A stretch of DNA of 11,761 nucleotides from a virus (lineage: Duplodnaviria > Heunggongvirae > Uroviricota > Caudoviricetes), in the IMG/VR virus record IMGVR_UViG_2526164633_000030; one strand, written 5' to 3'. The position numbers and the translations under genes are program-made. Every line of letters begins with the position of its first letter. Position 1 is the stretch's first letter. The notes below the pieces were generated by a model. It saw only the letters and a program-made list of their open reading frames with translations, did not search any database and had not been told where the DNA came from. Positions 5,391 to 6,241 of the stretch are shown in pieces.

Positions 5391-5395
5391 AAGCG

Positions 5396-5433
5396 AAAAA
5401 ATCCCGCAGTGCTCACGGACAGGAACTGCGGGA
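5396..5433 (-). terminator. candidate intrinsic terminator (distal, - strand) downstream of sodC
   Basis: 9-bp GC-rich inverted repeat TCCCGCAGT (5402-5410) / ACTGCGGGA (5425-5433). On the - strand the hairpin is followed directly by T6 (complement of A6 at 5396-5401). The loop is long (14 nt), so confidence is moderate. Confidence 0.4.
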
Positions 5434-5550
5434 GAGTTACGAAGATTGAGTGTAAGGAATTATTCTTATGTCACGACAAAAACATTAACTCAGAGAGGGA
5501 GGATGTGCCGTTCTTTTCAGGGAGAAAGGATTTATCGTCCTGAGGAATAA

Positions 5551-5574
5551 AGGTAAGGGGCCCGCCCCTTACCT
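5551..5574 (-). terminator. candidate intrinsic terminator hairpin immediately 3' of sodC (may act bidirectionally)
   Basis: Perfect 10-bp stem AGGTAAGGGG (5551-5560) / CCCCTTACCT (5565-5574) with a 4-nt loop, 6 nt after the sodC stop. Followed by a U-containing tract on both strands (UUAUUCC on -, GACUGAUUAUUG on +). Confidence 0.5.
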
Positions 5575-5580
5575 GACTGA

Positions 5581-6108
5581 TTATTGAATGATGCCGCAGG
5601 CCATTCTCGCACCACCACCGCCCAGGGGCTCCGGATGGTCATGATGGTTATCACCGCCAGCATGAAGCATGAGAGAACGCCCTTTAATCTCTTTTAATGA
5701 GTTCAGTCTCGGGGCCAGGACCGGGTAGTTCGCTTTTCCGTCATGCGTCACGAACAGCGCAGGGAGGTCGCCCAGGTGTCCATCCGGAGACCAGGGGCCA
5801 AGATGTTTGCCGGTGTTTTTCGGGTCAAAGTGACCGCCAGCCGATAATGCTGCGACCGGTTTTCCGTCTTTCAGTGCCGGGGCGCAATTTCCTTTTTCGT
5901 GCACATGAAAACCATGAATGCCTTCAGACAGAGAGTGAAGGGCTGGTGTGAACAGCAGACCGTAGGGGGTCTCCTGAATGGTTATTTTTCCAATGCTGAC
6001 TTCTTTTCCGTCAGCACTGACAAGGTTCATTGGGACTTCCTGTTCTGCTGCGTATCCGCATGATGCTGCTGTCAGCATGGCAATGGCAGCAATGATTTTA
6101 CATTTCAT
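5581..6108 (-). CDS. sodC: periplasmic Cu,Zn superoxide dismutase, prophage-encoded (SodC family), 175 aa
   Basis: Reverse-strand ORF. I place the start at the ATG at 6106-6108 (GAGGG about 5 nt upstream), not the upstream extension in the six-frame ORF 5581..6615. Product [20 protein letters not shown] (signal peptide)...[10 protein letters not shown]...GIHGFHVHE...[16 protein letters not shown]...GHLGDLPAL...[30 protein letters not shown] carries the SodC copper/zinc-ligand histidine blocks and resembles recalled Salmonella SodCI and E. coli SodC. Confidence 0.92.
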
Positions 6109-6241
6109 AAAACCCTCATTAATTCCGTTAACAGACTGAGCTTGCTGGTTACAGGGTAACAAACAGCGTTCTGATGATATCGCGCAATAGCTGTGCAATA
6201 TCCTATCACTGCGATTAATAATACCAATTGAGAGGAACATT

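Follow-up and report, generated by a model that had tools for sequence, protein, structure and literature searches.

The interval between tail genes I and J of a lambdoid prophage, positions 5391–6241 of the 11,761-nt stretch of Caudoviricetes DNA analyzed here (the window; IMG/VR record IMGVR_UViG_2526164633_000030), carries the sodC-F1 gene in a cargo cassette. The cassette lies beside what appears to be an older, promoter-less remnant of a PasB-type small RNA (sRNA) gene, and the terminators of both elements are predicted to act on the minus strand only. We hold this explanation, taken as a whole, with high confidence. The sodC gene itself is already known, and the small unreported detail is the sRNA remnant; SodC-F has already been documented in EHEC O157:H7 and other STEC as an accessory antioxidant factor, so recognizing it here adds no new biology.

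The tail assembly gene I (4710–5390, plus strand; Pfam PF06805 Lambda_tail_I, E = 1.5e-16) ends with TAA at 5388–5390. The tail tip/host-specificity gene J (6242–9718, plus strand), whose product has seven GpJ/tail-tip Pfam domains, including FNIII-A_GpJ, Ig_J, Phage-tail_3, and Ig_GpJ_C, begins with the ATG at 6242. Between them, an open reading frame on the minus strand (5581–6108) encodes a 175-aa Cu,Zn superoxide dismutase precursor. These coordinates are as given in an earlier, sequence-only reading of the window, and the core of that reading, a reverse-oriented, self-contained sodC cargo gene (moron) within the tail operon, holds. That reading had also placed the gene among the known phage sodC genes. 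By sequence identity, it is the already characterized sodC-F1 of EHEC-type lambda-like prophages, reversed between I and J, and the same gene as that described for SodC-F1/SodC-F2 of E. coli O157:H7 (D'Orazio et al. 2008, BMC Microbiol 8:166). The I-J interval has the same base as its counterpart in Sakai prophage Sp10 (ECs_1987 / sodC ECs_1989 / ECs_1990) at 850 of 851 positions, the sole difference, at 5435, falling outside the sodC ORF. The cloning primers of D'Orazio et al. match exactly at 5581–5600 and 6085–6105, and the product has Leu112, the marker of the SodC-F1 form. The 175-aa protein is also 100% identical in the Stx2a phages EH2201 and EH1846. Among 5426 complete E. coli genomes, 547 matched the I-J interval over at least 80% of its length; the window as a whole found mosaic matches only, the best of them 98.5% identical in four pieces. 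Although the gene does not differ from that of the SodC-F prophages, the window prophage has a shorter tape-measure gene than EH2201 and carries an IS66-family element in lom.

Judged from its residues, the product is a Cu,Zn superoxide dismutase with a full ligand set, disulphide cysteines, and a lipobox-type leader. It matched Pfam Sod_Cu (PF00080) at E = 3.9e-32 (111.9 bits; cutoff, 28.9), the NCBIfam SodC equivalog NF007628 at 218.4 bits (cutoff, 165), and bacterial Cu,Zn-SODs in the PDB at 1e-62. We aligned the product with human SOD1 by BLASTP. All Cu ligands (H68, H70, H93, and H149; human His46, 48, 63, and 120) and Zn ligands (H93, H102, H111, and D114; human His63, 71, 80, and Asp83) are present, and R168 corresponds to the catalytic Arg143; the same ligands and R168 are kept in a divergent E. 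coli allele of the L105 type (see below). Cysteines C75 and C171 are likewise present, C171 aligning with human C146 and C75 lying in a GNCAP loop where the aligned bacterial PDB enzymes also have Cys. The signal peptide proposed by the sequence-only reading could be recognized as an N-terminal leader with lipobox AASC, in agreement with the published 20/21 SPase I site; both features have been described and tested in published SodC work. D'Orazio et al. (2008) reported a SodC-F1 activity of 19380 U/mg and described SodC-F as a dimeric enzyme with an AASC lipobox, rpoS-independent expression, and H2O2-sensitive mutants. SodC-F has also been published to occur in soluble and lipid-anchored forms and to be expressed in log phase, in anaerobiosis, and in Caco-2 cells.

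To define the limits of the cassette, we aligned the I-J interval against the sodC-free alleles of JLK-2012, 2010C_5028, ATCC 25922, and E2348/69, a comparison that the sequence-only reading had proposed. The cassette proper appears to span about 5497–6241 (~0.75 kb). Its left junction (5497–5511) is a substituted patch with a ~45-nt deletion relative to the L105-type allele, and on the right, homology with the sodC-free alleles resumes only 2–4 nt before the J ATG. This is not a clean insertion. The I-J spacers of sodC-free alleles measure 238 and 343 bp, and the cassette stands in place of a variable, J-proximal part of the spacer (133–240 bp), which is occupied in sodC-free alleles by unrelated fillers. 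When we measured from a search pattern to the J start in 125 IMG/VR instances, the distances fell into size classes of 212–213, 313–315, and 825–826 nt.

Comparison of 31 IMG/VR loci showed that sites with a minor-allele count of at least 3 are frequent as far as position 5366 and again from position 6247, with position 5928 the only such site between 5436 and 6246. The segment 5436–6246 is thus a nearly invariant haplotype block of sodC-bearing prophages, and its position within mosaic I and J flanks (31–34 IMG/VR contigs) marks it as a discrete, recently spread module. Among these loci, sodC behaves as a discrete block and not as part of a larger ancestral one. The moron layout is borne out as well: the cassette is absent from sodC-free relatives and has a predicted terminator of its own, and sodC is lower in G+C than I and J. 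The moron definition, which takes in lambda bor and lom, reportedly goes back to Juhala and colleagues in 2000. Like those genes, sodC-F is an extra gene with its own predicted terminator, reported lysogen expression, and lower G+C, located between genes that are adjacent in relatives; unlike them, its cassette replaces part of a variable spacer and supplies the J ribosome-binding site.

Reversed Cu,Zn-SOD genes are also found in tail operons of Salmonella prophages. Gifsy-2 SodCI (STM1044; structure 1EQW, matched at 9e-62) is 58.8% identical to the window protein, but its gene sits between a lom-like gene after M and gene L rather than between I and J. Gifsy-2 SodCI is subject to PhoPQ regulation. 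Fels-1 SodCIII (STM0924), a periplasmic enzyme with 60.5% aa identity, is encoded in the same place and orientation as the window gene, in the order I, reversed sodC, J. In E. coli, the same site is occupied by the L105-type allele (rare, in 6 of 5426 genomes), with 81% aa and ~82% nt identity; strain FDAARGOS_1283 (NZ_CP070162) is one carrier. Together with the shared position, this allele would fit an ancient I-J resident, of common descent with Fels-1 sodCIII and since lost from the sodC-free phages, rather than a recent insertion. We consider such a history unlikely, given that the non-coding DNA around sodC in the window has no homology to that in Fels-1 and that sodC, at 52.8% G+C (GC3 50.6%), lies well below I (60.2%; GC3 67%) and J (57.9%; GC3 71%). 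Further, of 34 IMG/VR loci, 28 have an identical cassette and six a version with a 1-nt difference, while the I and J flanks of the window-type cassette differ by up to 8–10%. The sodC-free and L105-type alleles also share ~60 nt past the point where the window cassette starts, after which the fillers of the sodC-free alleles are unrelated.

The ~106 bp next to I (5391–5496) differ from the cassette in that they also occur in sodC-free prophages. Several hundred complete E. coli genomes matched only this part, at 94–97% identity, with sodC absent there, and it was also found in the sodC-free phage JLK-2012. The segment appears to comprise the body and terminator of a PasB-family sRNA gene (5396–5481, minus strand), an assignment based on synteny, strand, terminator, and the promoter in related alleles. 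PasB is an Hfq-dependent sRNA of the EPEC E2348/69 prophage PP6 (Pearl Mizrahi et al. 2021). Its 83-nt gene (NC_011601 1466343..1466261) and the window element are placed alike, directly after the I stop codon and antisense to the tail genes. The two are identical in 60 of 83 aligned columns (72%), with differences in the 5' half of the body, and the terminator 3' arm and U-tract (CACTGCGGGATTTTTT) are the same in both. The PasB Northern probe matches sodC-free variants such as that of ATCC 25922 in its first 20 of 23 bases and the window at 18 of 23 positions. A second set of sRNAs, EcOnc22-24 of EHEC Sakai prophages Sp15/Sp14/Sp11, is Hfq-dependent and gives a ~85-nt band (Tree et al. 2014). 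Their genes are located in the I-J spacers of these three prophages, in the same place and on the same strand as the window element and with a closely related terminator, and they map onto the PasB-like body after an inferred +128-nt genome-version coordinate offset; by way of this offset, the window element is probably their relative too. Of the known copies, those of E2348/69 and of the Sakai Sp15 type have been demonstrated to give an Hfq-dependent transcript of ~83–85 nt.

PasB and EcOnc22-24 have a promoter, which is missing in the window copy. In sodC-free alleles and in the L105 allele, a PasB-type promoter is present as TTCACA-N16-TATAAT or AATAAT; in the window, ATCCTC stands in place of the -10 hexamer, and the -35 has been lost at the 5497–5511 junction. 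Because both hexamers are lost, we class the element as a promoter-less remnant and not as an intact gene. The remnant may well be silent: Table S2 of Tree et al. (2014) lists no Hfq-CRAC peak at the Sp10 sodC locus, and the Sp11, Sp14, and Sp15 copies do give peaks.

Several other candidates were considered for this segment. Across the whole window, no Rfam family scored as high as its gathering threshold, and no model of a PasB-type family matched; at E<=1, STnc400 scored 23 bits (gathering score, 80) on the sodC terminator, which we judged to be a chance match. The anti-sRNAs AgvB and AsxR were ruled out as the conserved element, being located at the P_R' moron site and not in the I-J spacer. 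Sakai Hfq-CRAC peaks near sodC (EcOnc08/21 in Sp4 and EcOnc11 in Sp10) belong to other regions; EcOnc10-12 are HnrS. Covariation in a 5' helix of the PasB-like element (5435 with 5491) was also set aside, as the loci show each of the four base combinations. Searches of full-text literature for exact sequences of the PasB-like element found no paper, the Pas sRNA preprint (Zhu, Shabalina and Storz 2026) makes no mention of sodC, and we found no mention in the searchable literature of the loss of the sRNA promoter in the common sodC allele.

Downstream of sodC, a predicted intrinsic terminator on the minus strand (5551–5574) consists of a 10-bp G+C-rich stem with a 4-nt loop (-17.4 kcal/mol, z = -3.55) followed by the U-tract TTTATTCC at 5543–5550; the divergent L105 allele also has it, with compensatory substitutions in its stem. 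The remnant lies 54 nt beyond this terminator on the same strand, and with its promoter lost, the sRNA could arise only by read-through from sodC. Such read-through is conceivable to some extent, since the sodC U-tract is interrupted (UUUAUUCC). The remnant could then still be functional, processed from the distal 3' end of the read-through transcript as a 3'UTR-derived sRNA co-regulated with sodC-F. Its intact body and terminator would suit this idea, as would the near-absence of variation, 5435 being the only site with a minor-allele count of at least 3 in 5396–5481 and everything from 5436 onward belonging to the invariant block. Against it, the hairpin behind sodC is a strong one that the scan scored as a terminator, the promoter-bearing Sp11, Sp14, and Sp15 copies have Hfq peaks while the Sp10 sodC locus has no orphan peak, and the invariance reflects recent spread and is silent on selection. 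We therefore regard a functional remnant as quite doubtful. We give equally little credence to the wider proposal that sodC capture either rewired a PasB/EcOnc22-family sRNA gene into a sodC-F-co-regulated 3'UTR sRNA or shut down one of the several copies of a prophage sRNA. If rewiring did occur, the sRNA would link expression of an oxidative-stress cargo to the Hfq regulon, and the rare allele with both sodC and the sRNA promoter (6 of 5426 genomes) would be an evolutionary intermediate.

The second hairpin of the interval (5402–5433, minus strand), the predicted terminator of the PasB-like element, has a 9-bp stem and a 14-nt loop (-16.1 kcal/mol), is followed by T6 at 5396–5401 on the minus strand, and is conserved in JLK-2012, ATCC 25922, 2010C_5028, and E2348/69. 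Terminator-like sites numbered six, compared to 1.3 +/- 1.1 expected from shuffles. The sequence-only reading had assigned both hairpins to sodC and taken the entire 851-bp interval as one moron, with two tandem terminators of its own, between otherwise adjacent I and J genes. Both hairpins are indeed real, downstream of sodC, and correctly oriented, but conservation of 5391–5496 with the distal hairpin in sodC-free prophages leaves sodC with one terminator of its own. The comparison with lambda made in that reading is likewise correct in part: the lambda I-J gap is only 60 bp, but this prophage family has its own 238–343 bp spacer, partly replaced by the cassette. A single moron filling the whole interval is very improbable, because 5391–5496 is present without sodC in several hundred E. 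coli genomes and JLK-2012 and corresponds to an independently transcribed sRNA gene, because sodC-free alleles hold unrelated sequence in place of sodC, and because Fels-1, with sodCIII at the same site, has no PasB-like element. The sodC stop codon of Fels-1 is 53 bp from I.

Both hairpins are predicted to be terminators for the minus strand only. The late-operon (plus) strand reads AGAGUUACG and GACUGAUUAUUG after the hairpins, with no U-tract. It had been suggested that J expression depends on read-through of these terminators; as U-rich tracts follow the hairpins only on the minus strand, late transcription into J should meet no canonical intrinsic terminator. That both hairpins terminate the late operon, making J dependent on Q-mediated antitermination at this spot, is very improbable: the hairpins also form in plus-strand RNA (-18.6 and -20.8 kcal/mol), and lambda-type late transcription is Q-antiterminated anyway, but neither stem has a plus-strand U-tract, the scan listed no plus-strand terminator at either hairpin and only a weak 6-bp stem at 5865–5884, and a terminator-like hairpin on the plus strand just before J is instead found in Fels-1 and the sodC-free "short" alleles.

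The expression signals of sodC lie at the J-proximal end of the cassette. Its own ribosome-binding site, as previously proposed, is a Shine-Dalgarno sequence, GAGGG, on the minus strand (6113–6117), 4 nt before the ATG. The putative promoter region (6109–6241, minus strand) contains a 32-nt block (6160–6191) that, on alignment of the two sodC alleles, is perfectly conserved between them and includes a -10-like TATCAT at 6174–6179; a promoter scan of 6109–6241 found no consensus sigma-70 promoter. On manual inspection, a possible PhoP box near 6160–6165 amounted to one half-site downstream of the -10-like hexamer and was not credible. This region is part of a published 299-bp sodC-F promoter fragment (window 6106–6407), which includes 166 bp of J and for which promoter activity was reported from a lacZ fusion, the result being given as "data not shown" (D'Orazio et al. 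2008). The same study found sodC-F to be expressed in uninduced lysogens, independently of RpoS and prophage induction. On the opposite strand, the cassette supplies the J Shine-Dalgarno sequence GAGAGGA (6230–6236), which lies inside the invariant block.

Together, these features suggest how the locus may work. The ~0.75-kb cargo cassette is antisense to the late tail operon. Read along the minus strand from its 3' end, it is made up of a predicted terminator, the ORF with its Shine-Dalgarno sequence and its export/lipobox leader, and ~130 bp of regulatory DNA upstream of the ORF, which on the opposite strand is also the source of the J ribosome-binding site. A lysogen would transcribe sodC from the gene's own promoter without need of RpoS or prophage induction, and the product, exported, partly lipid-anchored, and dimeric, would remove periplasmic superoxide and raise resistance to oxidative challenge, as reported for the same sequence (D'Orazio 2008). 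The DNA at 5391–5496 appears to be older than the cassette, coming from an sRNA gene that sits antisense in the I-J spacer of this prophage family. Its promoter was removed in the window lineage by the substitution patch and ~45-nt deletion at the left junction. Any role left to the remnant may be no more than that of a fallback terminator, stopping sodC transcripts before they extend antisense into I, and plus-strand late transcription would pass to J unhindered by a canonical intrinsic terminator.

The value of the analysis is one of annotation, placing the true limits of the cargo at about 5497–6241. The cassette moves among mosaic tail modules as a block of 0.8 kb with hardly any variation, and the I-J spacer of these prophages is a small variable cargo slot that also houses the Hfq-dependent sRNA PasB/EcOnc22-24. 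Decapitation of this sRNA gene by the common sodC allele bears on counts of sRNA copy number and on how the distribution of Pas sRNAs in EHEC is to be read.

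The window is a lambdoid prophage tail module in which H (460-3039), M (3036-3365), L (3365-4063), K (4069-4812), I (4710-5390), and J (6242-9718) each match the expected Pfam family. The interval flagged by the sequence-only reading, 5391-6241, coincides exactly with the I-J spacer, which spans only 60 bp in lambda. As that reading had proposed, the spacer contains a reversed sodC gene: the minus-strand ORF at 5581-6108 encodes a 175-aa product matching the Pfam Sod_Cu (E=3.9e-32) and NCBIfam SodC equivalog (218 bits; cutoff 165) profiles and, at ~1e-62, solved bacterial Cu,Zn-SODs, among them Salmonella SodCI (1EQW). 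Alignment to human SOD1 placed every Cu ligand (H68, H70, H93, and H149) and Zn ligand (H93, H102, H111, and D114), as well as the catalytic Arg R168 and C171, confirming the SOD identity; no ligand histidine is missing. A Shine-Dalgarno sequence (GAGGG) lies 4 nt 5' of the ATG, and the product has a 24-residue N-terminal leader sequence.

The I-J interval of prophage Sp10 of E. coli O157:H7 Sakai differs from that of the window by one base (5435) over 851 bp, and its gene, ECs_1989, is annotated as "copper/zinc-superoxide dismutase." At least 80% of the interval is covered in 547 of 5,426 complete E. coli genomes, mostly at an identity of at least 99%, and two Stx2a-converting phages encode the identical sodC protein. 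Exactly this gene was studied, as sodC-F1/F2, by D'Orazio et al. 2008 (PMC2569942), whose primers, used for cloning and for the promoter, match window positions 5581-5600, 6085-6105, 6106-6125, and 6390-6407; codon 112 is Leu in the window, which is the F1 form. The AASC lipobox of SodC-F yields soluble and lipid-anchored protein, the enzyme is dimeric, stable, and highly active, and it accumulates during exponential growth, under anaerobiosis, and within Caco-2 cells; a 299-bp promoter fragment is rpoS-independent, and deletion mutants are H2O2-sensitive (PMC2569942). The function and prophage-independent expression proposed from the window were thus already published for this sequence, and we treat them as published facts and not as results of the present analysis.

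The earlier proposal that the whole of 5391-6241 is an insertion did not hold. Alignment with sodC-free relatives (phage JLK-2012, E. coli 2010C_5028, ATCC 25922, and E2348/69) showed that 5391-5496, the ~106 bp 3' of the I stop codon, including the hairpin at 5402-5433 and its T6, is common to them. In a complete-genome search, 1,255 E. coli genomes matched some part of the interval, and those sampled below the sodC-bearing set matched query bases 1-106 only, at 94-97% identity. Because homology with the sodC-free relatives resumes only 2-4 nt 5' of the J ATG, the cassette extends over ~5497-6241 and carries the J Shine-Dalgarno sequence (6230-6236).

Of 34 sodC-bearing loci, 28 share an identical 744-bp cassette and 6 differ in it by one base, while the flanks of sodC-bearing loci diverge by up to 8-10% from those of the window. 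Polymorphic sites, counted at a minor-allele count of at least 3, are closely spaced in I as far as 5366 and again in J beginning at 6247, with a single such site (5928) across 5436-6246. The G+C content of sodC is 52.8% (GC3, 50.6%), compared to 58-60% (GC3, 67-71%) for I and J. A near-invariant cassette of lower G+C and GC3 within mosaic flanks is the signature expected of a discrete block recently spread among prophages by recombination; the check for a larger ancestral block was negative, in agreement with the discrete insertion originally suggested. An exact-pattern scan of IMG/VR returned 125 instances, in which the J start lay 212-213 nt (13/125), 313-315 nt (63/125), 825-826 nt (33/125, with sodC), or 874 nt (1/125) from the pattern, the remaining 15 being assigned to no distance class. 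The I-J spacer in this phage family is thus a small variable slot, of which sodC is one allele. Fels-1 sodCIII (60.5% identity) likewise occupies the I-J slot in the same orientation, but its non-coding flanks are unrelated and the I-proximal conserved element of the window is absent, whereas Gifsy-2 sodCI (58.8% identity) lies between a lom-like gene and L. The position shared by the window and Fels-1 may reflect either repeated use of this junction or ancient residence there.

Both hairpins attributed to sodC (5551-5574 and 5402-5433) are present, but the distal one is not sodC's own second terminator; it belongs to the I-proximal element, a homolog of PasB that is present without sodC. PasB is an 83-nt Hfq-dependent sRNA, Northern-validated in EPEC E2348/69 (NC_011601 minus strand, 1466343..1466261; probe AATCCCGCAGTGATCGCGGAGCT, Table S6; Pearl Mizrahi et al. 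2021). In prophage PP6 it is located directly after the I stop codon, before J, antisense to the tail genes. In an alignment, window 5396-5474 is 72% identical to PasB, and the 3' arm of the terminator and the U-tract match it at every base. Differences of E2348/69 PasB from the window are mainly in the 5' half of the body, where four IMG/VR "short" loci also have clustered substitutions (equivalents of 5450-5470; minus strand, AACTCTCTATAGTTAAT in place of AATTCCTTACACTCAAT), a pattern suggestive of a constant terminator joined to a variable seed region.

EcOnc22, 23, and 24 are orphan Hfq-CRAC sites whose ~85-nt Northern band loses stability in the absence of Hfq (Tree et al. 2014). In Sakai, they map to the I-J spacers of Sp15, Sp14, and Sp11 and run antisense to the tail genes. 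The RefSeq record compared here is 5,498,578 bp; an older Sakai version, which we take to be 5,498,450 bp, would be 128 nt shorter. Coordinates in Tree et al. 2014 are those of the older version, and an offset of ~+128 nt at Sp15 is supported by the placement of EcOnc42 on EcOnc08/21, its stated homologs. Once this offset is applied, both EcOnc22 and EcOnc23 map to the body of the PasB-like element, and EcOnc22-24 probably correspond to it. Between Table S2 of that study and NC_002695.2, Sakai sRNA coordinates at ~2.67-2.92 Mb are apparently shifted by ~+128 nt and those near 1.18 Mb apparently unshifted, which matters for any mapping of EcOnc sRNAs onto the current annotation.

In sodC-free alleles, TTCACA-N16-TATAAT or AATAAT precedes the PasB-like element on the minus strand. 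Another sodC allele occupies this I-J site in one IMG/VR contig (L105, 5145-6045) and six complete genomes (NZ_CP070162.1, 1774944-1775844, and five other E. coli). It has ~82% DNA and 80.6% protein identity to the window, keeps all ligands, and retains the PasB-type promoter intact; from I to J, it carries the pasB-like gene and then sodC, each on the minus strand. When the window is compared with this allele, the -10 is replaced by a substituted patch at 5497-5505 and the -35 is lost to an ~45-nt deletion, so the window copy is a promoter-less remnant. Hfq-CRAC peaks occur at promoter-bearing copies, and the thresholded Table S2 lists none at the sodC-linked Sp10 copy (Tree et al. 2014), which agrees weakly with such a remnant. 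A 32-nt block at 6160-6191 is perfectly conserved between both sodC alleles (window versus L105-type alignment) and includes a -10-like TATCAT (6174-6179); a scan of 6109-6241 found no consensus sigma-70 site, and this block is the best candidate for the sodC promoter.

The commonest spacer allele, "medium" (343 bp; L007, from E. coli ATCC 25922, 2660-2835, and 63 IMG/VR loci), has ~170 bp of additional DNA separating J from the PasB-type promoter, including a palindromic hairpin, AAACCCCGGTATC...GATACCGGGGTTT. In one unclassed IMG/VR contig, the sodC cassette is broken by an IS66-family end (GTAAGCGACTCGTCAGAACCG...) immediately after the equivalent of 5508, in the junction patch adjoining the PasB-like remnant.

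U-rich tracts follow both hairpins on the minus strand only (UUUAUUCC after 5551-5574 and U6 after 5402-5433). The late-operon strand reads GACUGAUUAUUG and AGAGUUACG, and a terminator scan found no plus-strand terminator at either hairpin; the idea that J depends on read-through of two terminators is therefore unfounded. Antisense sodC transcription into I is a more realistic concern than a block to J, and the two tandem minus-strand terminators would stop it. A strong, sense-orientation terminator-like hairpin lies just 5' of J in sodC-free "short" alleles and in Fels-1 (loci L002, 3370-3410; L129, 2030-2070; L004 [Fels-1], ~20 nt 5' of the J RBS), for example CAGGCACC-CGGTGA-GGTGCCTG followed by TTGTTTTTGTG; the window sodC allele lacks it.

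Directly 3' of the J stop codon is a plus-strand intrinsic terminator (9738-9761; GGCACCT-CAGG-AGGTGCC + T6), and phage EH2201 has a terminator-like hairpin at the equivalent place. In the region 9787-11761, a lom-like ORF (cf. lom of EH2201) opens at ATG 9787 and is broken off after ~4 codons by the end (GTAAGCGGCTCGCC..., from 9799) of a minus-strand IS66-family element. The tnpC of this element is divided between two overlapping frames (10392-11399 and 9829-10530) and is therefore frameshifted or a pseudogene, and 11419-11601 holds a tnpB fragment.

We conclude that the sodC observation holds, that its identification was right in the essentials, and that it is already known; what needed correction was the extent of the cassette, where the distal hairpin comes from, and which way the terminators point. 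Our literature search found no paper linking sodC-F with PasB/EcOnc22. What is new is confined to the decapitated PasB-family sRNA gene adjoining sodC, a modest, annotation-level observation.
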